Origin: Halocafeteria seosinensis
Taxonomy: Eukaryota
NCBI GenBank assembly: GCA_001687465.1
Contig: LVLI01001242.1
Location: 1 to 32,061 of the forward strand
Direction of reading: 5' to 3'
DNA: 32,061 nucleotides
The number at the start of each line of letters is the position of its first letter. Positions within the stretch are counted from its first letter, which is position 1. The notes under the pieces were generated by a model, which ran no database searches, was not told the origin of the DNA, and saw only the letters and a program-made list of their open reading frames with translations. Below are positions 7,320-32,061 of the stretch, in pieces. The translations under genes were made by a program, and so were the position numbers.

Positions 7320-7528
7320 GACCATTCACAGCGATGGTCTGGCCAGTGGTATCAAACGGTTTTCGCCACTGAGTTGCACGATCAAACTGGTGCGTATCTT
7401 TGAAACACTCAGCATGTATCGATGCATTAAAGCGTCCGTACATCAGCGCTGAGCTACATCTGTTGACAACCCATGCGTCAAGCTAGATCCGAAGCGCGGT
7501 CAAAATAGCAAGGACTGCTAGGATTGCA
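7320..7528 (-). pseudogene. Inverted, degraded partial copy of RPA43 (end of intron 3 plus start of exon 4)
   Basis: Aligns by eye to ~1137-1357 (FNASIHAECFKDTHQFDxATQ..KP.DT.GQTIAVN). It keeps the intronic CCTAGCAG acceptor, and has a CGA>TGA stop and a small deletion. Confidence 0.9.
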
Positions 7529-18185: not shown

Positions 18186-20348
18186 TTAGAAGGAGGGTCT
18201 CCTCTGCGGGAATTCCTTTTTGCTGTGCTCCCGTCTCATTACTCGGCTTCTGCTGCGGGAGCCGGGCTTAGCTTCTCGGGAGATGCTCCTCCGCGATGCT
18301 TGCTTTGTCTTCGCAAATTTTAGCTGATCTGCATGTCCGGGTGCGCTCCTAGCGGTAAACCTACTTGACGCTGACGACTGTGGCCTCGGTGAACTTCTTG
18401 GCCGTGTTAGGCTTGGCGACTTCTTCGTACGAGTATGTTTGCCACGCACTCGTCGAGAACTGCTGGAGGAAACAGCAGAGGCTGAGTCTGTGTCGGAAGA
18501 AAACGGATTTGGGGTGTATGATCTTGGAACCAGAACAGGATTTCGTGAAGTCTGGTTCGACTTTAAGCCTAGTTCTATGTCAGAGTCGTAGAGTCTCTGC
18601 TTTTCCGCATGTGTTCGTCTCCTTTTCCACAAATAGATGCCGAAGAGTAATGCGACTAAGAGCACAGCGGTGAGACTTGTTCCAACTGCTACACCACTAG
18701 CGGTACCACCACCCGTATTTCCAGCCGCTGTGCCTCCTCCACTATCTCCTCCTTCAGAAACGCTTGGCGCAATGGTAGGCATCGATGATGGGCTCAGTAC
18801 GCTGCGTGTACTGGCAGACGAAGACGCAGTTGGGGAAATGGGGGTTGTCGGAGCAGTAGTAACAGAACGAGCAGCTGCTGAAGAAGGGGACGGAGTCAGC
18901 GACGAAGCTCTGGGAGAAGCTGAAACGCTCCCAGTGAGGCCGCTTGCACTGGGCGTGGTACGAGAGGGAGACGAAGGACTCACCACAGCTGTTACGGAGG
19001 GAGTCGGTTTTAGTTGAAATCGCAAAACCGGAAAAGACTCGTCGTATTGGATGGCCCAAATTGCTTCGGACCAACGACGTGCGCCTTCGAACTCATACAG
19101 ATGTCCTTTTATTGAGTCAAGGTTGTCTGAGTTACCTTCATTCACGGTCAAGAGCTCAGCATTGAAGCCAGCAATATCCCAAGTTCCATTAGCCGGATAA
19201 ACAGAGTATTTCACTTCAACTGCATCTGGAACGAAAAAAGATTCCGATGAATTAACAACGCTCCCGAAAATCCCACCTACACCCCACGCTGCCGAGGAAA
19301 CAGGTCCCGTGGAGTAGGCGTTTTCAACAGTAACCGTCGCTTGGATCCACCCAGCCAGCCATCCTACAATTCCTCCAGACCAATTCCCATTTAACTCTCC
19401 CCGAGAGTATACATTGGCAAGGTGCACATGTCCATGAAAATTTCCGGTTGCTCTGCCGCATATTCCCCCTGTCTCATTGGCATTAAGATTGCCCAACGAG
19501 AAACTCTCTGATATGTATACTTCACCAGAAAGGAGACCTGTGCTTTGGCCAGTAATACCACCACTGTGTGGTCCATTCAAGTGACCCTCTGAGTAACATT
19601 GGTAAATGTTCACGGTTCCGTTCTGGTTACCAGCGGCCCAGCCAACGATTCCCCCTGCCTCCAGGCCATCGATATTACCAGTGGAGTGGCACTGAGTAAT
19701 GTTAACTTCGCCCACCTCGTATGCTAATCTTGAACCAGCGATGCCCCCCGAGCTGATCCCCTTTATCCTCCCCGATGAAGAAGAATTAGTTATGTCCGCT
19801 TGGCCTCCGAATTGGGCAGTTTTAAACCCACAAATTCCGCCACCCCCCTTGTCCGTGGAAGTATCTCCACCGATGACTCCAGACGACGAGCATGAGTCAA
19901 CCTTAAAGAACCGTTGACCTGGGCGAACTATGAATCCTCCAGTTTCGCTAGTAGCTCCACCCAACGTATGGACACACACAATCTTTGGAGCTTCGGTAAT
20001 TGACTCGATACCGGAATCGTTTATGGCAAACAGGCCGTGGAACGGCTTGGCATCGGTGAGTTCAAATGCATGCCCATATCCATCAAACGTCTCTCCGATT
20101 TCCAGCGAAACAAAATCCTCCTCCTTCCAAGAACGAGTGCATGATTGGATAAACAACTTCCTCGAAGCATCGTATACCAAGCACTCTTCCTCCCCGGTGA
20201 TAATCGCTGAGCGCCGGTCATCAGCAAGTGCTGCAATTGCAAACCAAGCCAGCAATATGCTGGTAAGCAAACCGTACAGTGCCCTCTTTGCCACGCGTAG
20301 GGCTGAGGTGCCAGTAACTTTGTCCTGTCGATGGTCAAACATTGCCAT
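18186..20348 (-). CDS. Type I surface protein: signal/anchor, one GLUG-like (GG[I/L]xG) repeat domain, Ser/Thr/Pro stalk, TM helix, basic Ser/Arg-rich cytoplasmic tail
   Basis: Likely ATG at 20348 (MAMFDH...). Hydrophobic ALYGLLTSILLAWFAIAALA is followed by ~8 repeats of the type S.G.I.G...GGI.G...G.V.I..(C/S)YS. TM segment LTAVLLVALLFGIYLW is followed by KRRR. No intron in the ORF. Confidence 0.8.
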   Translation of the reverse strand: MAMFDHRQDKVTGTSALRVAKRALYGLLTSILLAWFAIAALADDRRSAIITGEEECLVYDASRKLFIQSCTRSWKEEDFVSLEIGETFDGYGHAFELTDAKPFHGLFAINDSGIESITEAPKIVCVHTLGGATSETGGFIVRPGQRFFKVDSCSSSGVIGGDTSTDKGGGGICGFKTAQFGGQADITNSSSSGRIKGISSGGIAGSRLAYEVGEVNITQCHSTGNIDGLEAGGIVGWAAGNQNGTVNIYQCYSEGHLNGPHSGGITGQSTGLLSGEVYISESFSLGNLNANETGGICGRATGNFHGHVHLANVYSRGELNGNWSGGIVGWLAGWIQATVTVENAYSTGPVSSAAWGVGGIFGSVVNSSESFFVPDAVEVKYSVYPANGTWDIAGFNAELLTVNEGNSDNLDSIKGHLYEFEGARRWSEAIWAIQYDESFPVLRFQLKPTPSVTAVVSPSSPSRTTPSASGLTGSVSASPRASSLTPSPSSAAARSVTTAPTTPISPTASSSASTRSVLSPSSMPTIAPSVSEGGDSGGGTAAGNTGGGTASGVAVGTSLTAVLLVALLFGIYLWKRRRTHAEKQRLYDSDIELGLKSNQTSRNPVLVPRSYTPNPFSSDTDSASAVSSSSSRRVRGKHTRTKKSPSLTRPRSSPRPQSSASSRFTARSAPGHADQLKFAKTKQASRRSISREAKPGSRSRSRVMRREHSKKEFPQRRPSF

Positions 20349-21247
20349 TTTGTTCCGTTGAACGTTCCGCCAAAGCCCGACTTGGTTACGCACTTCCAAA
20401 AATACAAGAGAATACCAGAGAAGCTTCTTTTCGAAACAACACGAGCAAGTTGATCGCGAGTGCAAAATACCTTATTGCATAGGCAAAATATGTAGACAAA
20501 ACACGCCAATTCATCCGACCTGCCGTAGGAAACCTGGTGTTCTTCGAATAACAGGTTGAAGCAGCCTGAAGGACGCAAGTGTTGTCCAGCCTGTACTGCA
20601 CTGCCCTTTCGGCTGGGATCCGACTCAAGCTTCGGAGCATCGGAGCGCCAGCCACTTAGTCACACACAAAGCACTAGATTTGGATTGTACGTATTCGATA
20701 ACCACTGCGTTTATTTTTTCGGAACCTGAATTGGTCGCGCGAAATAAAAGCTTGTACAGTATTCGCTACTGTACCGGCTCTTGGACCAGTCTGGTGGAAG
20801 AACGGTGATCTATTAGTCTGGTATTCAAGCCTAGGTATGTATAGTGGTGCAAGGGAATCTTAACAAGCAACCTTTATTCATGTGCATTCTTGGTTTGTAC
20901 GATATGTGCATTGTGCTCCCCCAGTTGAAGACCTAAAGTCGTGGAGAACATCCCGACAGAAAAAGTCCAGCGTACTCGTCCATCAACTCCGTTCCGGGCT
21001 TCAACGTCCGTCCTCCTTCCAAAGTGTTCTGCGTTGTTCAAATACTACGCGTGCATGTTGCGGTTTCTTACCCTAACCGGTACTCACTGTTCGTGCAGAG
21101 TGCACGTGGATATCAAACCAGATGATCCCAATCTAATCGCTGACATTGTGTGATGCTGAAATGATATCGCAAAAAGCCAATACGCTGCTCGGTGCGACGG
21201 CTCTCTATCCACCGAATAGTCCAGAGACTACCAAAAAGCATACGCAG

Positions 21248-24200
21248 ATGACAGTACTGAAAAGGTCTCTCTTTGCTTTTGTCCTAGTAGCGTCGGTCGT
21301 GACGCGCGTGCTTGGAAAGGATCTCCGGCCAGCAATCGTTCAGGACTCGGTAGACTGTATTGACTATCTTCCGGCGGAGCAGCTGTTCCGACAAGTATGC
21401 CACATCAATTGGCACCGAAGCTTTTCTGAAAGCGATTTTATAATGCTCCTCAAGTGGGACAAGTATGATGGAAATGGATTCAATATTTATTTGGATCATA
21501 TGAACAAGTTTAGAGGAGTCTTCAAAGTCAACGAAACTGGCATCGATTCGTTAGGGAATGCTCCGCACATAATGCGCGTGCACACAATACGAGGGAAGAC
21601 CTCAGAGAGTGGGGGTTTCATCGTGCAGCATACTCAAGCCTACTTCTGCGTTACACTGTGTAGTAGCACTGGGACCGTGAGTGGTGGTACAGGCTCCGGA
21701 AATGACGGTGGCGGGGGAATTGCGGGCGCCCGTGCTGGGGAAAATGGTCATATCAGAATCGAATATTCTTTCTCGACTGGAAAGATAGAAGGATCTCGAG
21801 CTGGCGGAATTGCGGGAACCAAGGTGGCGAATTCAGGTTTGGCGCAAATTTCGAGTTGCTTTTCAGATGGCAACATACAAGGAAAATCGAGTGGTGGTAT
21901 CGTTGGCTCCAGCGCAGGAGAGACAAATGGTATTGTCAATATTACGAAGTCTTACTCGACTGGAAATATATGCGGGGGCGGAACTGGTGGCATACTAGGA
22001 AAGACCGCTGCATCAAGCGGGGGCCAAGTTTATGTTAGTCAATGCTTCTCTAAGGGTGATATCATCGGAGATGCAGCTGGAGGTGTCTCCGGGGAAGAAG
22101 GGGGATACGGTGGTATCCTCCACATTATAGACTCGTATTCCCACGGAATGTTGACAGGAAACGTTTCGGGAGGGATTGCTGGCGGTGCAGCGGGAAGCGA
22201 TGGAGGCTGTGTAGTCATAATCAACTCGTACTCAAGTGGTGGAGCGGGAAAAGTAGACATTGAAACTGGTGGTATTTTGGGGAGCGTAGGCGGTGCGAGT
22301 CCTATCTCACCTCAATACGTTGCAGCGCGATTTTCAGTGTACCCTGAGAATACTACAGCGATAGCCGGACGAGGAATCTCCTTGATCGATGTAAACGAGG
22401 GAAACGCCCAGCACTTGGAGGATATAAGGGGGCGCCTATATTTCTTCAACGGTACTCAACGCTGGTCAGGTAGTATCTGGGTCGTTCGTTCTTTCGAAGA
22501 ATACCCCATATTACGTTTCCAGCAAAGTCCTTTCCCACACCCGACCCCCTCGGGCACCCCCACAACTACTCCGAGCACCAGTAGTTCAAGCACCGGCACT
22601 CCAACGATTACTGGTACTCGTTCTGCTACTCACAGCGTAACTTCCTCGCAGACAGTGTCGCCCACTAACACAGCTTCGGCTTGTCCGACCGGCAGCCCTT
22701 CTTCAACTCCTTCCAAGAGTGCTTCAATAACCTCAAGCCCCAGTTGTACACGGGCCGCCTCTCCAAGTCCTCGCATTCCGGTTGACTTACGGGAACCAAT
22801 CATAAAAGGGGAAGAGCCTTGTCTAGAGTACAGCCACAAGGAATCCTTGTTTACACAATCGTGTAATATTGTTTGGAGCAAGCTATACGATGAAAGACAT
22901 TTTATTTCTCTGAGGAAGGGTGAGACCTTCGACGGCAGGAACCACTCCATTGATTTTGCAGATGTTGGGAGGTATGAGGGTTTATTCAGAATTAATGACA
23001 GTGGTATTGGGGATATATCGAAAGCCCCACTGATCCATCGTGTCCATACGTTGAAGGGACAGACCAATAACGCTGGAGGTTTTATTGTCCAATCCAGACA
23101 ACGCTTCTTCGAAGTCGATTCGTGCACTGTATCCGGAATAATCAACGGAGGCTCTGACGGAATTCAAGGAGGTGGAGGCATTTGTGGCGCCGAATGTGGA
23201 GCAGTGGGTGGAGACGTTCGAGTGAGGGGATGCAATTCGTTCGGAACTATACGTGGTGCTAACTCTGGAGGAATCGCCGGCTCCAGGCTTGCCATGAATG
23301 GATCGGCTACTATTTCTGAATGCGGCTCCACGGGAAACATAGCGGGGGAAAACGCAGGAGGTGTTACCGGGGCGAAATTGGGGCTAACAAATGGCTTTGC
23401 TACTATCAGCAACTGCTTCTCTTCCGGAACAATTACGGGATCCAAAGCTGGAGGTATCACCGGCTATACAACCGGCGATAGTTGCTCACATGCTACAATT
23501 TTCCGCTGCTACTCTACTGGAGATGTAATCGGTGCTGGCAGTGGAGGTATCACCGGTAAGGGTACAGCTACAGGACAGGGATTTGTGAACATATCCCAGT
23601 GCTTTTCCGTCGGTATTATCGGAGGTAGAGGGAGTGGAGGCATTTGTGGCGAAACGTGCGGAGACTTCCGTGGTAACGTTAGCATATCTAACTCTTATTC
23701 CCGTGGTGTTCTTCGAAACAACAAGACCGGTGGCATTACAGGGTGGAATTGCGGATATGACACGGGAACCGTTAGCATCACGGAAACGTATTCCAGCGGC
23801 TTTGTGGCACCGGAAGCTCGCATTGCTGGTGGGATATTGGGAAGCGTGTCCTCTCATGCTCACTTCCCCCCTAAATGGGTCAGCATTGCCTATTCTGTGT
23901 ATTCCAATACCACATCAGGAATTGCCGCACGGCACAAACGTGAGATATCAAAAGCGGTAGGGAATTCTAATGATCTTAGTGAGATCAGGGGAAATCTGTA
24001 CCACTGGAATGGAAGTGAAGTTTGGAACCCGTTGATATGGACTGTTCCAGACGGCCACTCATATCCTATTCTGCGCTTCCAACAATCTTCTTCGCCGTCT
24101 ATGGAGCCGAGCACTCCTGCGACGGTAACTTCGCCGCCAGAGAGAACCCCGACGTCAGCTACTTCACCATCTATGGGTCCTACGGCGACACGTTCGCCAG

Positions 24201-24466
24201 AGAGAACTTCGACACTCTCTGCCACAAGTTCCCCCAGTGCTACCGCGTCACACTCTCCANNNAAACATGGGATGAATTCAACTCCGGTTCCAACAGGAGC
24301 CATAGCAGGAGCAGTGGTAGGTGGTGCTCTACTACTACTGATTCTTGGAGCATATGGTTACAGTCGCCGCCGTCGGCGACGTCGTTTAGAGACAGAATCG
24401 TCCGAGTACACGTCCACGTATTACGAGAAGCTATTGGACGGTAGTGGCGCACACAATGTTGTATAA
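21248..24466 (+). CDS. Type I surface protein with two tandem GLUG-like domains, two Ser/Thr/Pro stalks, TM helix and short Tyr-containing tail
   Basis: Signal peptide MTVLKRSLFAFVLVASVVTRVLG. Two modules each start DLRxxI...C and end W...YPILRFQQS. TM segment AIAGAVVGGALLLLILGAYGY is followed by RRRRRR. An NNN gap at 24260-24262 falls in the second stalk. Confidence 0.8.
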   Translation: MTVLKRSLFAFVLVASVVTRVLGKDLRPAIVQDSVDCIDYLPAEQLFRQVCHINWHRSFSESDFIMLLKWDKYDGNGFNIYLDHMNKFRGVFKVNETGIDSLGNAPHIMRVHTIRGKTSESGGFIVQHTQAYFCVTLCSSTGTVSGGTGSGNDGGGGIAGARAGENGHIRIEYSFSTGKIEGSRAGGIAGTKVANSGLAQISSCFSDGNIQGKSSGGIVGSSAGETNGIVNITKSYSTGNICGGGTGGILGKTAASSGGQVYVSQCFSKGDIIGDAAGGVSGEEGGYGGILHIIDSYSHGMLTGNVSGGIAGGAAGSDGGCVVIINSYSSGGAGKVDIETGGILGSVGGASPISPQYVAARFSVYPENTTAIAGRGISLIDVNEGNAQHLEDIRGRLYFFNGTQRWSGSIWVVRSFEEYPILRFQQSPFPHPTPSGTPTTTPSTSSSSTGTPTITGTRSATHSVTSSQTVSPTNTASACPTGSPSSTPSKSASITSSPSCTRAASPSPRIPVDLREPIIKGEEPCLEYSHKESLFTQSCNIVWSKLYDERHFISLRKGETFDGRNHSIDFADVGRYEGLFRINDSGIGDISKAPLIHRVHTLKGQTNNAGGFIVQSRQRFFEVDSCTVSGIINGGSDGIQGGGGICGAECGAVGGDVRVRGCNSFGTIRGANSGGIAGSRLAMNGSATISECGSTGNIAGENAGGVTGAKLGLTNGFATISNCFSSGTITGSKAGGITGYTTGDSCSHATIFRCYSTGDVIGAGSGGITGKGTATGQGFVNISQCFSVGIIGGRGSGGICGETCGDFRGNVSISNSYSRGVLRNNKTGGITGWNCGYDTGTVSITETYSSGFVAPEARIAGGILGSVSSHAHFPPKWVSIAYSVYSNTTSGIAARHKREISKAVGNSNDLSEIRGNLYHWNGSEVWNPLIWTVPDGHSYPILRFQQSSSPSMEPSTPATVTSPPERTPTSATSPSMGPTATRSPERTSTLSATSSPSATASHSPXKHGMNSTPVPTGAIAGAVVGGALLLLILGAYGYSRRRRRRRLETESSEYTSTYYEKLLDGSGAHNVV

Positions 24467-24625: not shown

Positions 24626-26752
24626 TCACCGTGCTGCAAACAATTCTTGTATTTCCTCCAGGGTCTTGCCCTTAGTTTCAGGGAGACGGAAAAACAAGAA
24701 CACACCGCCAAGGAAGGCGATGCCGGCGTAAACGCAAAAGGAACCGAAAGGAGTGATGGTGGTAGCAAGACTCAGGAATGTCATGGATACCAACAGATTA
24801 AATACCCAATTTACCGTCGTAGCAACAGAAACGGCAACTGCACGGACCTGATTCGGGTAAATCTCACTGTTGATAGTCCAGGGCATGGCTCTGTACAAAA
24901 ACATGTGATCAACGTTGCGTCGCCCTTCAGTAGGTGAAGATTGAAGGATCACTTACGCAAGTCCTGGAGCAAACCATATCAAATATAAAACCAGTGCTGC
25001 TAACGCTCCCCATCCCAGATCCTGCTGGAGCTGACCGGGACAATGGCTAAATCCCCATACTGAATTCGTTGGACCATCGCCTGGCTCCTTATTGGCACCG
25101 TCCCTATCTCCTTTCAAACAATACCCTGAAGTTCTATTGCCAAAGAAACCACAGTCGTCTTGAAGAACGCAATCCATGCACTTCGCAAACTTTTGACAAG
25201 CGCGACTTTCTGGGAAGCCATCAGGTGGCGAAATTATCATGGCAGAGTGTTGTCGTTTGAAGTAAAAGACTACACCAAGAAGAATTAGCGACACAGTAAC
25301 ACCCGCAATAGACGCCAGAGTCAGCCTACGGCGTCCTCTGCGAAGAATATCGCGTCAACGCTTAATCAGGTAGACGCATGTGTACGCCCAATACTTACTG
25401 CGTTTCAACGAATCGAAGTCCAAGACCGCTAAATGAGAAGTTCGCGAACGCAACCACCGCCGTCAACCAGATAGCAGTTCGGCTTTCAAAGCCAGCATTG
25501 TGGAGAATTGTACCTGAGTAATACATTACCGTGTTGATTCCAGCACTTTGCTGGAGTAGCTGCAGTGTACACCCTACGATAAACGCCCGGCGAATAGCAG
25601 GAGTCTTGAAGATTAATTTCCATGTGTCGAGACACCTGCCGAATTTAGTGCACATGCCATTCTTCTCATATCTGGCTCCGGAACCTCTTCGGTTTTCCTC
25701 GTAGATAGCATCTTGTATTTCTTTCAGTTCCTTGTCAATCGCGTAGGTAGTGGTATTTGCTCCTTGGTGTTCAATCTCATCCACGTTCTTCGGACCGCTT
25801 TTGTTGCCTTCCGAGTCGGAGGACAACAAGGCTGCCGAACGTTCGGTTTTCGTGGACTCAGTCGTATTGCTCGTTCGATCCTCTGTACTTTCTTCCAAAG
25901 TAATATCCCGAGTATCGTAGGAGGCTGTAGAACTGCCCGCGCTGCTCGCGTCGGTGGATTCTGGTGTTCCACGGAGCGTTTCCAATGCCTTGCGAGCTTG
26001 TTCAAACTTTCCCTGTGCAACAAGGTACCTAGGTGACTCCGGAAGCCCCCAAAGCCCAAAAAATTGCAACAATGCTGGAACTCCTCCCAAGCCCAGCATG
26101 TACCTCCATCCATCACCTCTCCCGGAGAACGCACCGTCTACAAGGGCAGCCAAGAACTGTCCCCCCGTGATGAAAAATGTGTTAACTGTTACCAGTCTAC
26201 CACGGTATCTCGAAGGAGCCATCTCTGCGATGTACATGGGAACAATCATCGAAGCTTGACCGATGGCCAAGCCCACAATTAGGCGACCTGCAAGCAGTTG
26301 GAACAAGGATTGAGCAATCCCCATTAAAACCGCACCTCCGACAAAGATGACGGAGGCCAGCATGACCACCAGCTTTCGGCCGATGCGGTCGCTAATACAT
26401 CCTGAAAAAAGAGCCCCTATCATGGCACCAAACACAGTAATGCTGACGATTGCTTCCTTTTCAAGGTCCGTCAACGAAAAGTAGGAGTCGATGGATAGTA
26501 AAGCTCCCGAAATAACACCCTGTAAAATACACGCATGAATGATCATGAGTGTCAGTGACCACTGTTCGCTTTATGGTACTGCACATTGTGCGGTAAGCAA
26601 CTTACAGTATCGTAACCAAAGAGGAGACCTCCAATGGCTCCTACGGCGGTAACATAGATAATGTACCATTGTTGCCGTGTGTGCGTCTTTTTGTAGAGCT
26701 CGTATTCCTCGTATTCACTGTGAATTCCTTTGGACGAGGAAATTTGCTTCAT
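24626..26752 (-). CDS. MFS sugar porter, H+/myo-inositol transporter type (HMIT/SLC2A13, plant INT); exons 26752-26606, 26519-25399, 25337-24957, 24890-24626
   Basis: Motifs GGLLFGYDTGVISGALL, DRIGRK, PMYIAEMAP, LPESPRYL, QQSAGINTVMYYS, MPWTINSEIYP and LPETKGKTLEEI. The Cys-rich loop (CQKFAKCMDCVLQDDCGF..GYCL..CP) is typical of HMIT/INT. Three in-phase introns. Confidence 0.92.
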
Positions 26753-27245
26753 GTCGTTCGTGTTACTTTTTGTCCGTTCAAGTAAGGGATGCTCTCAGAG
26801 CTTGCTACCACCACACCGGTAGGCGCTTGCTTCGATCAGGAATTCACACGGTTCTCCCAGCAAGTGCAAGGTGAAACGATGGCACGAATTCGAGCGATAT
26901 GTACCGTACCGACTAGCGAATGTGTCAATACGCAGTCTGCAACTTGCATTACTGCTCTTAGCCCCCTCTACATTCTCCCTGTTTGAACTCGCGGTGCAGG
27001 AGAGGATGACGTCATCTGGCTTCTTTCTGTCTCGCTCTCGCTTCAAGCGACGGCCACTTCCTGGTTCTGGAACTTCTGGCCCACCTCGAGTCGGGAGTCG
27101 CCCGGTCATCTTCACAAAGTACGGTAATCGTGCTGCACAACCTGTCATGGAGTAAATGAAAGGATTGCTAACTGTTAATATAATAGCCAAATAAGGGACG
27201 AGAAAGTCAAAGGCTCATTTTGTCTGTACGTACGCTATCTATAGA

Positions 27246-28763
27246 ATGCTCCGTTCCGCTAGGAGATTGTTGGTGGGGAGTCTCCGACTCCCAACATGCT
27301 CCATACACGCAACGAAATGCTCTTTGTCCGTCGGTGTGCAACAAGCGACACCGAGGACGCTATGTATTCGATTTCAGAGCAATGAAGCCGGAGATGGAGG
27401 GGAGCAACAGCGTCAAATGGACCCTGAAAAACTGGTGGAGGACTTGAAAAAGACGGTGTCTGATCGCGAATCTCAAATGATGGAAGACTTTAAGTCGTCA
27501 GCACGCCCCGAAGAAGCATGGATGATGCATTTCTATCAACACAGGAATATGGACTATACGCTCCCAGCTATCAGGAGGATGACTGATTCAGATACGATTC
27601 GGACTAACGCCCCTGTTTTGTCCCGGGTGATCTTTTTCCTTGCACGCACACTCGAGACTGCCTCAGCGACCGCCTTGGCTGGAACGGCAATGCAATTACC
27701 CCTGATAAGTCGTCTTGACGCATTGGACATCCTAGCCACCCTGCATCAGGTCAACTCGCGGGAAGCCAACAACGTCTTTTCTCGATTGGCGGAACACGTA
27801 TATGGAATGGACAACGCTGATGCCAAACGAGTAGTAGAGAGCATAAAGGAATCTCCCATCCAATCTGTCAAGGATTGGCCGGCGTTGCATTTGGCGTATG
27901 CTGCCCAAGCCGCGGCACGAGAAAACAACATGGGGGTATCGGAAATGCCCTCCTTGGGATACTCTCGCACAGATTGCATTGATGATCCGGATTCTTTGCT
28001 AACTGATAATTCGTCGACTCTTTTTGACTACTGCAATCTAACTCAGCAACACCGATTTCATCATAGAAGTGAATATGAAAAGCAGAAGGAAAAAGACATC
28101 GAGACATTGAGGAAAGAAAGTGAAACGTCCAGAGATACACCGGCCACGGGTGGGAACTACCCTTTGACTCTGCCAGCACCAGGCGGTATACTTCCAGCCG
28201 CACATGATTATTCATTGACGATTTCGGCTTGCCAACTGGAAACACTATGGGCTTGCTACTACTCGACGGGTGATGACGCGTTTCTCAGACGTGTTATTGA
28301 TATGGCGTTGCCATGGGCCAATTGGGCAAACCACGAGGGAAGCATTGCCTTTATCACGGATCTGAATACACCTTTTCCAGACAGCATCCGAAAGTCAATA
28401 GAGGACTCGTCAGACCCTCTTCTCTCGAATTTGAATGCAACAGTTTCACGTCTGTGCTGCTGGTCTTTGGTGCAGAACAGCAAAGCTCATGAAGGTTGGT
28501 GCTTTCTTCCTTTGTAAACGCTTTCGTATATCTGTCTGTAGATACTCCTGGCTGTCCTTTTTCCTGCAGCGGTATTCCGGTTGATGGCTGAAGAGTGTAC
28601 CAAGCTCGGGGATATGTGCGTAGATCCTATATATGCTGTCAAAATGCACGAGGATGCACACCTGAAACATGAGAAAATGACTCTGTACCCTGCCCTGCTC
28701 CATCTAATGTCTCGAGCCGCTGGCGAACGTTTGATGGACAATGCCGAGGACCAGACAAACTGA
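27246..28763 (+). CDS. Hypothetical protein with probable mitochondrial presequence; intron 28495-28569
   Basis: Arg/Ser/Leu-rich, acid-free N-terminus (MLRSARRLLVGSLRLP...IRFQS). GAAG|GTTGGT...CTGCAG|CG joins the 423-aa ORF to the 28581-28763 frame. Confidence 0.75.
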
Positions 28764-29427
28764 ATCATAGTTTGGGGAAGGGGGACCGAAAGGACCGGAC
28801 TGTAGTATTGACGCTCGTACCTAAAGGCATCCCAGTGGAGGTGGAATACATACTACACTGTTATCAATTTATGTTTATGACCGCACAACGTTGCATATTC
28901 CACGTAGGTACCCTCACGGGCTGCACATCGAGTAGTGGAACAGTGTACCATGTAATACTGCATACCGTGCAGTCGGTTATTGATTCCATACCATAAAGTC
29001 ATATGATTCATATGGGACGCCCCGCAACCTCCGATATGGATGGGTGCCCTAACCGGTCCCGAATGGTATTACAGTACTTGCCTCATCATGCCTCATCCTT
29101 CTGGACACTTCCATTTTTCCCCTTGTTGCTGCAGAATGAACCGGACCACTAAATCGCGCTGGGAAAACTCCAAGAGCACGACAGAACTGGTCTTTAATCT
29201 GAATGGACATCCACTACTGTAAGTGCTTGGTTAACACCAGGCACGAAACCAATCAACAGGTTCTGCGAAGGTAAGATTGCTATGGCTAATTCACTCTTCA
29301 TACTCGACGCTAACTTGATGTCCAAGCAGGAGGTTTGCGTCGTCGTGAACCAACAGTACAGTAATCAATAGGGAAGAGAACGCCCACATCCGTCCTGACT
29401 GGGCGTTGCGAAAACCAGCTTTCCATA

Positions 29428-29859
29428 ATGGATGTTTCTGTACCCCAGCAACCCAGAAAACGACTCACCGCACATATAAGGTTAGTCAGTTCATGTCTAC
29501 AGGTGGTGCCTCCTGAGCCACGATGGTGGCAAGACATTCGGTGGGTTGAAGAAGACTGCTTTTACACAGTGATAGCGACTCCTGTGGACATACTCAAATG
29601 CAACTGTGCCGATAGCTACAAGGGGAATGACTGCAAGCATCAAAAACTGGTAAGGGAGTTCGATCCCACGCTCCTCAGCTTGGGATCAAGTGAGTCCGAG
29701 ACAGCGACCCACGATGTTCTCATGGACACATCATGTGTTCCCTCACGGCGCATGTCAGCAAGGCTGCAGGAAACAGCGGGCCCGTCGCTGCTTAACACGG
29801 GCGCATACCGCTCCTCGTTAAGAGGATGTGGTCAACTCCCCGGCCGGTGGGCTATCTGA
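29428..29859 (+). pseudogene. SWIM zinc-finger ORF fragment (possible MULE-like transposase relic)
   Basis: FYTVIATPVDILKCNCADSYKGNDCKHQKLV fits the SWIM CxC-x(n)-CxH pattern preceded by Y.V. Flanking frames are interrupted and no transposase core is visible. Confidence 0.55.
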
Positions 29860-29995
29860 AGGCAGACCGAGACGTACCAAATCCAAATGTACGTTTTTGG
29901 ATGGGTCGCTCGAAAGAAGACGTGTTACATTGGTACCAAGGACAATTAGGGAGGTATGAAACCATGGAAGAGAATCAGAGAATATATAATACTAT

Positions 29996-30084
29996 AGGAA
30001 AAATGGTGAATTTTTGATGCAATGACTTTTCGCTACGCTCAAAGCCAAACATCAAAAACGCTGACGCTATTCACCATTTTTCCT
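29996..30084. repeat. Terminal inverted repeat / nested hairpin
   Basis: AGGAAAAATGGTGAAT (29996-30011) is the exact reverse complement of 30069-30084. Inner stem TTTTGATG (30012-30019) pairs with CATCAAAA (30050-30057). Confidence 0.92.
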
Positions 30085-30094
30085 TTCTCCATAT

Positions 30095-30165
30095 AAAGTG
30101 TAATTTTAAAGTGTAATTTTCAAAAGTGTAATTTTCAAAAGTGAAATTTTCAAAAGTGTAATTTT
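30095..30165. repeat. Tandem array of five 13-15-bp units (CA)AAAGTGTAATTTT
   Basis: Units start at 30095, 30108, 30121, 30136 and 30151, with degenerate copies following. Confidence 0.92.
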
Positions 30166-30249
30166 AAAATTATAAAGTTAAATTTTAAGATTTTGATTTA
30201 TATAAATTTTGAAGTGTAAAAAAAATTCACCATTTTTCAAAAGTGGACA

Positions 30250-30285
30250 AAATCTTATATNAAATCTTATNTNAAATCTTATGTT
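30250..30285. repeat. Three 12-bp tandem units AAATCTTATNTN
   Basis: Read directly; ambiguous N bases fall at the variable positions. Confidence 0.85.
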
Positions 30286-30408
30286 GAAACTTTTATAATT
30301 TAATTCTATATATTTTATTAAAATCTCTTTAAGTAGAAATTTTTATAAANCGATTTATNAAAATTACTTATTTTTTAACTTAGAGATAATTTAACATATA
30401 TATTTATA

Positions 30409-30717
30409 ATGAAAATAGAAAAGATTGTTAAAGGACTTGAAGAAACTTCAACATTAACAATAAACGAGTTTGTAGATGCTTGTAAACAAGGAGATATAGA
30501 TACACTTAAGAATAACTGTATACCCTTTTATTTACTTCGTAATGAAAAAGTAAAAGAAAGAGTTTGTCATATAATTTGTTCTCTTGAACAAACAGAAGTC
30601 TATAGAGTTTTATCACATAGAATATCAAGTGTATGGAAATCTAGATGTTATGAATTATTAAATAGTCTAGATTATCAAGAAACATTAAAGGAGTTCAAAG
30701 AGATTGATAATAATTAA
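30409..30717 (+). CDS. Viral-element hypothetical protein (102 aa), weak ankyrin-like motif
   Basis: ATG ORF in AT-rich DNA preceded by the shared motif. FVDACKQGDIDTLK loosely resembles one ankyrin repeat. Confidence 0.7.
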   Translation: MKIEKIVKGLEETSTLTINEFVDACKQGDIDTLKNNCIPFYLLRNEKVKERVCHIICSLEQTEVYRVLSHRISSVWKSRCYELLNSLDYQETLKEFKEIDNN

Positions 30718-30726
30718 TATAATTTA

Positions 30727-30766
30727 AACTTAAAGAATTTTTTCTTTTATATAGATATAAGAAAAA
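30727..30766 (+). promoter_or_regulatory. Conserved upstream motif of the element's genes (representative copy; others at ~30377, 31112, 31391, 31838)
   Basis: AACTTAAAGA-WTTTTTCTT-(TA-rich)-TATAAGAAAA-ATG or variants precede all five ORFs at 30-38 nt spacing. Confidence 0.7.
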
Positions 30767-31105
30767 ATGATAGTTAAAGGATATATAATAATTCATCGCA
30801 CTGGTTTTAGAATAGGGATAAAAACACCTTACAATATAGGAGAAATTAGAAGAGATACGGTTGACTTTCCTAAAAAATTTGGATGTTGTAGAACGTTAGA
30901 ACAACGAGAAAAATTTGAAAAGCGTAGAAAAGAAAGTTTAGAGAAATATATTAATTTTGTTACTGAAACTATTTATGATGAATTTTTAACGGATGAGAAA
31001 GAACCGACAATTAATGAATTACAAATTTTAAATAATCTTAATCAAGATATTGTTCTTGATTCTCCGTTAAAAGAAATAACTAAATATATTGAACCTATTT
31101 ATTGA
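30767..31105 (+). CDS. Viral-element hypothetical protein (112 aa)
   Basis: ATG ORF preceded by the shared motif; no family recognised. Confidence 0.75.
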   Translation: MIVKGYIIIHRTGFRIGIKTPYNIGEIRRDTVDFPKKFGCCRTLEQREKFEKRRKESLEKYINFVTETIYDEFLTDEKEPTINELQILNNLNQDIVLDSPLKEITKYIEPIY

Positions 31106-31149
31106 AATTAAAGCTTAAAGAAATTTTTCTTGTATATAATTATAAGAAA

Positions 31150-31377
31150 ATGGAACAAATAAACGTCAAGATACAAGAACTAGAAGAATTACTAAACAAT
31201 CAATTTCAAAATGATTTTAATATTCTTGATTCTGTTGATACTCAAACATATGGAAACATTACAGACAAGCTATTTACGCTTTGGATTTCAACGGACAACA
31301 TTAAAGGTTTTATTGATAAATATCAAAAATTTAGTGATATAATTAATCAAGGTAGTTTACCATATACGGATGATTAA
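31150..31377 (+). CDS. Viral-element hypothetical protein (75 aa, MEQINVKIQELEELL...)
   Basis: The ATG at 31150 follows the shared motif, so it is preferred over the TTG at 31102 in the ORF track. Confidence 0.7.
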   Translation: MEQINVKIQELEELLNNQFQNDFNILDSVDTQTYGNITDKLFTLWISTDNIKGFIDKYQKFSDIINQGSLPYTDD

Positions 31378-31425
31378 TATAATTTTATTTAACTTAAGAA
31401 AATCTTTTAGTTAAATATATATAGA

Positions 31426-31845
31426 ATGAATTTTTCCCCTGAAGATAAAAAATTTGGAGATACTAAAGAAGATGAATATCAAGACGCAATTAGCAAATTT
31501 ATTGGTAAACCAATTATTAAGACAAAATATAAATTTTGTTACTATGATTACTTCACCGAAGATAACAAGACCCGCATTGAACTAAAAACTCGTAGAAACT
31601 CTTATAATGCGTATGATAAAACGGTTATAGGTTTAAGTAAAATAATTAATTGTAGTAAGAACCCTGAGAAAGAGCATCTCTTAGTTTTTGGGTTTACTGA
31701 TGGGTTGTTTTATATTTGGTATGACTCATCTAAGTTCAACGACTTTGAGATTGAGGAAAGAATAGTTAGAACTTACCTAAATAATGGTCAAGGACATTTA
31801 GTTAAAAATATAAAGATACCAGTTTCAGAATTAACTAGATTATAG
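31426..31845 (+). CDS. PD-(D/E)XK restriction-endonuclease-fold protein (139 aa)
   Basis: G..KE...(helix)...YYDYF.......IELKTRR has the E...D...ExK catalytic layout, followed by HLLVFGFTDGLFYI. It resembles small nucleases of phages and virophages/PLVs. Confidence 0.75.
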   Translation: MNFSPEDKKFGDTKEDEYQDAISKFIGKPIIKTKYKFCYYDYFTEDNKTRIELKTRRNSYNAYDKTVIGLSKIINCSKNPEKEHLLVFGFTDGLFYIWYDSSKFNDFEIEERIVRTYLNNGQGHLVKNIKIPVSELTRL

Positions 31846-31874
31846 AATTTTTCTTTTAAGTATATATAAGAAAA

Positions 31875-32061
31875 ATGAAATATAGTTATTGTTTCTTTAA
31901 AGAACGTTATTATAAAGCAAATAGTAATAATAATCATTACGAGTGTTATGTTAATGGTAATATTCACTGTATTTTAAGTTATTGTGAAGAATCTCAAAAG
32001 CTTAATCTTATGCGTTATAGCTTGGGTATTTTAGGGCACTCAGTTAATCCAACTACACAGT
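31875..32061 (+). CDS. Viral-element hypothetical protein, partial (MKYSYCFFKERYYKANSNNNHYECYVNG...)
   Basis: Not in the ORF track. ATG at 31875 follows the shared motif and the frame is open to the window end. Confidence 0.7.
   Translation, partial: MKYSYCFFKERYYKANSNNNHYECYVNGNIHCILSYCEESQKLNLMRYSLGILGHSVNPTTQ

Follow-up and report, generated by a model that had tools for sequence, protein, structure and literature searches.

The right end of contig LVLI01001242.1 of the protist Halocafeteria seosinensis raises the question of whether the AT-rich DNA found there is the end of an integrated virus, and at which base it begins. The window analyzed here is the whole 32,061-nucleotide stretch of this contig (assembly GCA_001687465.1), and an initial annotation had proposed at its right side one terminus of an endogenous virophage or Polinton-like virus (PLV). 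Our analysis demonstrated that a foreign, gene-dense DNA element is inserted in a multicopy host repeat and that it starts at 29982–29984. The stretch from this start to 32061 is probably, at about 80% in our estimate, one end of a 15–30 kb endogenous virophage or PLV. The proposal is supported by the genomic context of the family of one gene (ORF4), by an element end present in many copies with several flanks, by an uninterrupted form of the target, and by motifs upstream of the open reading frames (ORFs). The features are collected in Table 1.

The abrupt composition switch described initially was confirmed. The guanine-plus-cytosine (GC) content was 48.9% over 1–29976 and 24.2% over 29977–32061, with the best change point at 29980 (range, 29924–30094), and GC at third codon positions was 0.12–0.24 in the element ORFs vs. 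0.46–0.53 in four host ORFs. The left side is compact eukaryotic DNA with ADP/ATP-carrier-like, sugar transporter, RPA43, F-box, and AIG1-like genes. Its intron-bearing character also held up, as introns of 59–86 nt were skipped by contigs of runs X2, X3, and X4 and kept by contigs of run X1. Therefore, X1 was read as DNA and X2–X4 as RNA; the run kind is listed as unknown for all four, and these labels come from the intron behavior.

For the junction analysis, contigs of X1–X4 were aligned to positions 25000–30255; the contigs discussed are those listed in the contig tables, with 221 loose ends and 971 pieces lying outside that part. In all four runs, two contigs per run matched the window up to 29983 and then continued with diverging letters (CTTTTGTCGAATGGCC). 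This continuation is the uninterrupted form of the target repeat, as seen in copies of the repeat. Contigs matching from 29982 rightwards, with different DNA to their left, were found in X2 (two contigs), X3 (one), and X4 (two). Since the repeat copies diverge after 29983 and the element ends match from 29982, the element start lies at 29982–29984, with the dinucleotide AT shared between element and target. The consensus of the left flanks in X2 and X4 reached an agreement of only 0.6 and resembled the X3 flank blended with a second one, from which at least two further insertion sites were inferred. The start had initially been placed at 29977, five to seven bases too early, as AGAGAAT (29977–29983) is also present in other copies of the host repeat. 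A Polinton-type 5′-AG terminus at 29977 and a target site duplication (TSD) of AGAATC were likewise rejected, because the contigs place both in the host repeat; the end itself begins with AT, and AGAATC does not abut it.

The multicopy nature of the target was evident from the contig depth in X1, which was 123 in unique host DNA up to approximately 29117 and, summed over contigs, approximately 600 to more than 200,000 in the repeat. The unique contig stops at 29146. A GT..AG intron (29269–29327) inside the repeat was skipped in X2–X4. An ORF of the repeat (29428–29859) has a CxC-x7-CxH motif, which we take to be SWIM-like, so that the repeat may presumably be a decayed Mutator-like transposase gene; Pfam and PDB gave no support for this identity. 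A short repeat of extreme depth (29734–29858; more than 200,000 in X1 and 26,000–40,000 in X2–X4) is nested in the target repeat, is followed by a GT microsatellite in 29 X1 contigs, and is possibly SINE-like (short interspersed nuclear element) or MITE-like (miniature inverted-repeat transposable element). An Rfam scan of 28800–32061 gave no match.

The element is likely represented in the genome by a family of divergent copies and not by a single copy. The summed X1 depth fell from 3152 at 30020 (nine contigs, one variant) to 75 in the bin 30104–30255; summed contig depth does not equal copy number, and the pattern agrees with tens of copies of one end on elements that differ in their interiors. 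The interior was covered by 69 X1 contigs, of which 28 were at least 99% alike and 22 were less than 95% alike, and X1 copies of ORF2 and ORF4 with other neighbors represent rearranged interior variants. Element ends with other flanks (29982–30094) occurred in the RNA-like runs X2–X4, mostly with a variant at 30020 unlike the dominant one of X1, possibly as read-through from host genes at few loci. X2 and X4 had no contig on 30360–32061 and bear on expression in neither direction.

The approximately 430 bp of structured non-coding DNA noted at the start of the AT-rich part was borne out, measuring approximately 427 bp with a hairpin and 15-bp repeats. When 29982–30100 was folded as DNA, the hairpin had a free energy of −22.6 kcal/mol (z, −6.45), a stability equaled in none of 200 shuffles. 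The additional inverted copy of the hairpin arm arose by chance in 14 of 1000 resampled controls. No inverted partner of the element end was present within the window, which stops 2 kb into the element. Before ORF1, an imperfect AT-rich palindrome (30287–30426) exceeded 500 of 500 resampled controls; it contains Ns, and five Ns lie within 30261–30359. Two pattern searches with the end yielded candidates that were set aside. A 19-nt end pattern matched eight viral stretches that shared 19–27 nt and no protein and were treated as chance matches, and an 18-nt hairpin-loop pattern matched a CRESS-like (circular Rep-encoding single-stranded) DNA virus (L089, 2084–2101), which is not a relative and probably reflects convergence or chance.

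The AT-rich part had been described as carrying co-oriented, intron-free small ORFs, and it does: five plus-strand ORFs with ATG starts cover 89% of 30409–32061, whereas 200 resampled controls reached 2% on average and 20% at most, and they are separated by gaps of 29–49 nt. Their description as mostly unrecognizable stood for four of the five and failed for ORF4. ORF2 had no relative among 1.84 billion protein representatives or in viral contigs, and ORF1 had no match in viral contigs and no family in profile libraries. For ORF3 and ORF5, the only scans made (Pfam, PHROGs, NCBIfam, and the collected loci) yielded no convincing family.

The five ORFs also share upstream sequences. TATATA lies within 25 nt before the ATG of all five, which occurred in none of 20,000 shuffles of those upstream stretches, and of the 11 TATATA sites in the element, only one falls within a coding region. 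CTTA(A/G)AG precedes the ATG by approximately 30–38 nt in four of the five; this expression was derived from the same ORFs, so its match is not a test, and the shuffle test was used instead. A divergent X1 copy (loose end at 31062) carries the same motif behind ORF2. The scan of the upstream stretches found TCTA before none of the five ORFs and no AAAATTGA. The TATATA motif may be a promoter. TATATA has been called a late promoter like that of African swine fever virus (PMC11788076), and TCTA is the late motif of Cafeteria roenbergensis virus and the motif of mavirus (PMC8547959).

Table 1. Features of the element, its junction, and its target in the window.
Feature	Coordinates	Strand	Remarks
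Multicopy host repeat, insertion target	29117..29983	.	Other copies are spliced; perhaps a transposase gene that has decayed
True junction: AT common to uninterrupted target and element end	29982..29983	.	Loose ends behind 29983 (X1–X4) and before 29982 (X2, X3, X4)
Non-coding end of the element; likely belongs to a terminal inverted repeat (TIR)	29982..30408	.	Without ORF; outer ~110 bp common to many copies
Predicted subterminal hairpin	29996..30084	.	Perfect 16-bp arms (29996–30011 / 30069–30084) and 9-bp inner stem
Tandem repeat, 15-bp unit × 5.1	30095..30169	.	Repeat scan
Extra hairpin-arm copy, inverted to 29998–30015	30221..30238	.	18 nt, 100%
Upstream motif, putative promoter	30379..31874 (gaps before ORF1–5)	+	CTTA(A/G)AG and TATATA
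ORF1	30409..30717	+	102 aa; no family
ORF2	30767..31105	+	112 aa; no public protein relative; divergent copies in X1 (contigs 2, 4)
ORF3	31150..31377	+	75 aa; no convincing family
ORF4	31426..31845	+	139 aa; PD-(D/E)XK nuclease, PDDEXK_14-related; predicted Hjc-like fold
ORF5	31875..32061	+	62+ aa, cut by window end; no convincing family; divergent X1 contig runs past the end

ORF4 is, by its conserved catalytic motif and its predicted restriction-endonuclease-like fold, a predicted PD-(D/E)XK nuclease. The match to Pfam PF24579 (PDDEXK_14) was weak (E value, 4.6e-4; 20.9 bits, under the 25-bit cut-off). In 45 aligned sequences of the ORF4 family, D41, E52, and K54 were invariant and E15 was present in at least 90%. 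The structural model (predicted local distance difference test score, 90) best matched the archaeal Holliday junction resolvase Hjc (1gef and 2wcw; Z, 9.9; root-mean-square deviation, 2.9–3.0 over 103–104 residues), with a similar fold and 16% identity, followed by other PD-(D/E)XK nucleases, including restriction enzymes. None of 249 pattern matches in prokaryote genomes was confirmed as an ORF4 relative, and none was found in 50,697 phage records. The sole initial IMG/VR match of ORF4 (L001, 27 aa) proved to be an unrelated bacteriophage and was excluded from all counts. A soil run (X5) had two contigs only, one of them with a 197-nt piece 99% like ORF4, which is too little to name a habitat.

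To this family belong 79 loci (57 metagenomic and 22 from IMG/VR; 48 groups at 90% identity), which are short aquatic contigs. An A32-like ATPase, searched with a profile built from seven Pox_A32 matches, was present in 31 of them. Among the 26 loci of at least 10 kb, 19 carried the ATPase or a virophage capsid gene, and three more encoded a protein of 550–590 aa whose representative falls in Preplasmiviricota clusters. A 581-aa neighbor protein was assigned to such clusters at 0.98. In a cluster of nine loci, virophage capsid families (PF21915 and PF22031) were found in all six members tested and a Sputnik penton match in two of three tested neighbors; an rve integrase domain occurred in locus L014 and pPolB in locus L052. 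The profile matches of L066, L067, and L088 were circular, L067 having been put into alignment A5 without proof, so these loci, which hold ATPases, were not counted as having virophage capsids. For the capsid candidates, PDB sequence and profile searches returned nothing, and comparison with virophage capsid profiles was not significant.

Several recurrent arrangements were observed among these loci. Among the 19 loci (L010–L080) that have both a PDDEXK_14-like nuclease gene and a gene of approximately 290 aa resembling a tyrosine recombinase, the two are found within 121 bp of each other in 16. This pairing spans different capsid types and is possibly an integrase–resolvase module. The recombinase-like family (alignment A7) has invariant R, K, R, and Y and is named from these conserved residues; no Pfam, NCBIfam, or PDB match was obtained. 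Eight loci (L010, L012, L015, L035, L068, L069, L072, and L076) are genomes of 20–28 kb with a conserved capsid-like protein of 550–590 aa, which lacks Pfam and PDB matches, falls in Preplasmiviricota clusters, and is flanked by two genes of approximately 305 aa and one of approximately 600 aa. Near the nuclease gene, seven PLV-sized loci (L020, L024, L025, L043, L046, L073, and L082) encode DNA methylases and the small subunit of a ribonucleotide reductase, and they also have an unclassified conserved protein of 426–438 aa.

The window holds a low-GC, intron-free, gene-dense island integrated in protist DNA, and one accessory gene of its five is shared with known virophages or PLVs. Several points weigh against assigning it to these groups. 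The five ORFs in 2 kb of element include no capsid, ATPase, polymerase, or integrase gene and no second TIR is present in the window. The viral assignment comes through one accessory gene, ORF4, at 25–41% identity to the relatives that have context, and nucleases of the PD-(D/E)XK type are mobile. The contigs that carry the closest relatives of ORF4 (P0001 and P0003, 64% identity) measure 1557 and 912 bp; in the tree, ORF4 groups with them on a branch of its own and joins neither virophages nor PLVs. The predicted fold also matches tailed-phage proteins and, weakly (E value, 0.002–0.004), proteins of Klosneuvirus, Edafosvirus, and Hyperionvirus. The 24% GC of these 2 kb is below the 34–35% mean of known H. 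seosinensis elements (10.64898/2026.07.28.741278) and the 29.7–52.7% range given in the two bicosoecid studies (10.64898/2026.07.28.741278; PMC8547959). No listed contig bridges 29983/29984, with 971 pieces beyond the listing; the window's letters at 30020 were not seen in listed X1 contigs, nor those at 31860–32031 in the listed contigs. Finally, X1 is possibly the window's own source, and X2–X4 come from a single sample of the same study.

A satellite or derivative without a capsid gene is an unlikely alternative; it would be either a giant virus's linear plasmid resembling a transpoviron, or a non-autonomous copy with deletions that retains the ends and accessory genes of a virophage or PLV and is moved in trans. 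Transpovirons are approximately 7 kb long, with small genes including a helicase gene, TIRs, an internal tandem repeat (also seen in the window), giant-virus promoters including TATATA, and no capsid gene (PMC11788076). The element end is approximately 25 times deeper than unique DNA and its interior approximately one to three times, and fragments that keep their TIRs have been reported in the Halocafeteria preprint (10.64898/2026.07.28.741278). However, many subtypes sharing one end would explain the depth pattern as well, the five ORFs are intact, the ORF4 relatives with context are capsid- and ATPase-bearing genomes, and a PD-(D/E)XK-type nuclease is not among the transpoviron genes in the accessible part of the source (PMC11788076).

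An end belonging to a giant virus (Nucleocytoviricota) that integrated, or to a small relative such as a mriyavirus, is a very unlikely explanation of the stretch. The very low GC, the small ORFs of no family at an end, the TATATA motif, and the weak giant-virus fold matches would suit such an origin, and mriyaviruses carry a PDDEXK nuclease, which also counts against a virophage or PLV. Among the best 120 of 256 ORF4 profile matches, most of which carry PF24579, however, the longest contig measured 21,986 bp, so that none exceeded 22 kb, and IMG/VR contigs with the family span 4–28 kb. Tens of end copies with varied interiors also fit small elements better, and no giant-virus blocks were reported for a comparable genome in the accessible part of the preprint (10.64898/2026.07.28.741278). 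An assembly chimera or contaminant, in which a host repeat was misjoined to an AT-rich viral, bacterial, or organellar contig, is highly improbable: the junction does lie in a repeat, near five Ns, with no listed bridging contig and an allele at 30020 unseen in X1, but the join falls exactly where element copies end and repeat copies diverge, an overlap join would need more than the two shared bases, three RNA-like runs show element ends attached to other flanks, no relatives were found in prokaryote genomes, phages, or plasmids, and the element family would still be integrated even if the join here were false.

If the element is an endogenous virophage or PLV, a linear genome of 15–30 kb would continue past 32061 and include, besides an inverted copy of the end, genes for capsid, packaging ATPase, replication, and integrase. 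The element's own integrase would have attached this end to host DNA at the AT that both share, by one of two routes. A shared AT is expected under a tyrosine-recombinase crossover with a short core or an AT-target rule, whereas a retroviral-type integrase making a 5–6 bp duplication would require a chance AT, a coincidence of approximately 1 in 16. Two points weigh against the tyrosine-recombinase step: palindrome-ended Halocafeteria elements accompany RVE integrases (10.64898/2026.07.28.741278), and in four of the 26 long loci the only capsid candidate is an unverified 434-aa protein. Because of the former, we give the two routes about even odds. The end hairpin and the 15-bp repeats may serve as a replication origin or as integrase-binding sites, and ORF4 may cut branched DNA in replication, recombination, or packaging. 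A co-infecting giant virus could use its transcription machinery on the TATATA motif, in which case the genes would stay mostly quiet until infection. We regard as doubtful the further-reaching idea that small DNA viruses with hairpin ends form an uncatalogued, very AT-rich lineage that inserts itself at AT dinucleotides through tyrosine-recombinase crossover, persists in tens of copies with shuffled gene sets in this protist, and has TATATA late promoters triggered by an unknown asfarvirus-like giant virus of the host.

Two further observations concern the host side. The region of the RPA43-like gene contains an inverted partial duplication of 87–88% identity (1144–1356 and 7320–7522, approximately 6 kb apart). 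Two related divergent genes rich in Gly and Ser (18186–20471 on the minus strand and 21137–24466 on the plus strand) have linkers of Ser, Thr, and Pro and probably a membrane anchor at the C terminus; the domain occurs twice in the second gene, and both are without a Pfam family.

Protists can be protected against giant viruses by their endogenous virophages, and the promoter that intact copies share points to an awaited helper virus. What the locus provides is an end and a target defined to the base, an integration rule that can be tested, and a promoter motif. Protist genomes contain tens to thousands of virophages and PLVs of 14–40 kb, fragmented in short-read assemblies (PMC10120064), as in the present case; as such elements are common, one more end without capsid genes is a modest addition. 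No description of this particular end or motif was found in the literature searched, as far as it was accessible, which is not proof of absence.

Polinton/Maverick termini begin with 5′-AG, unlike the AT at 29982–29984. For PLVs with tyrosine recombinases and Sputnik-like virophages, integration without a true TSD would fit the two shared bases (PMC12220804; PMC11296320), TSDs going with rve and being mostly absent with tyrosine recombinases (PMC12220804); no recombinase gene adjoins ORF4 in the window. PDDEXK_14 belongs to the ten domains that are most abundant in marine PLV clades (10.64898/2026.05.28.728513). The endogenous mavirus-like elements (EMALEs) of Cafeteria burkhardae are low in GC, bounded by TIRs, located near host repeats at 18 of 29 sites, and equipped with type-specific upstream motifs (PMC8547959). 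They mostly have TSDs of 3–5 bp, and type 4 uses TCTA (PMC8547959), unlike the ORFs here, which matched no mavirus gene.

In H. seosinensis itself, 41 PLVs and 36 virophages have been reported, with 77 complete and 30 fragmentary elements (10.64898/2026.07.28.741278), and the present element may already be catalogued in the element tables. The main text of the preprint, as accessible, names no PD-(D/E)XK nuclease (10.64898/2026.07.28.741278). The Halocafeteria palindromes lie at the very ends beside TSDs, whereas the hairpin in the window starts 14 nt inside and no TSD is visible. The reported elements are AT-rich islands in host DNA of 47–48% GC, comparable to the 48.9% of the host side here, and comprise many divergent subtypes, often in repeats, MULE-rich loci (MULE, Mutator-like element) among them, with TIR palindromes and low expression (10.64898/2026.07.28.741278).

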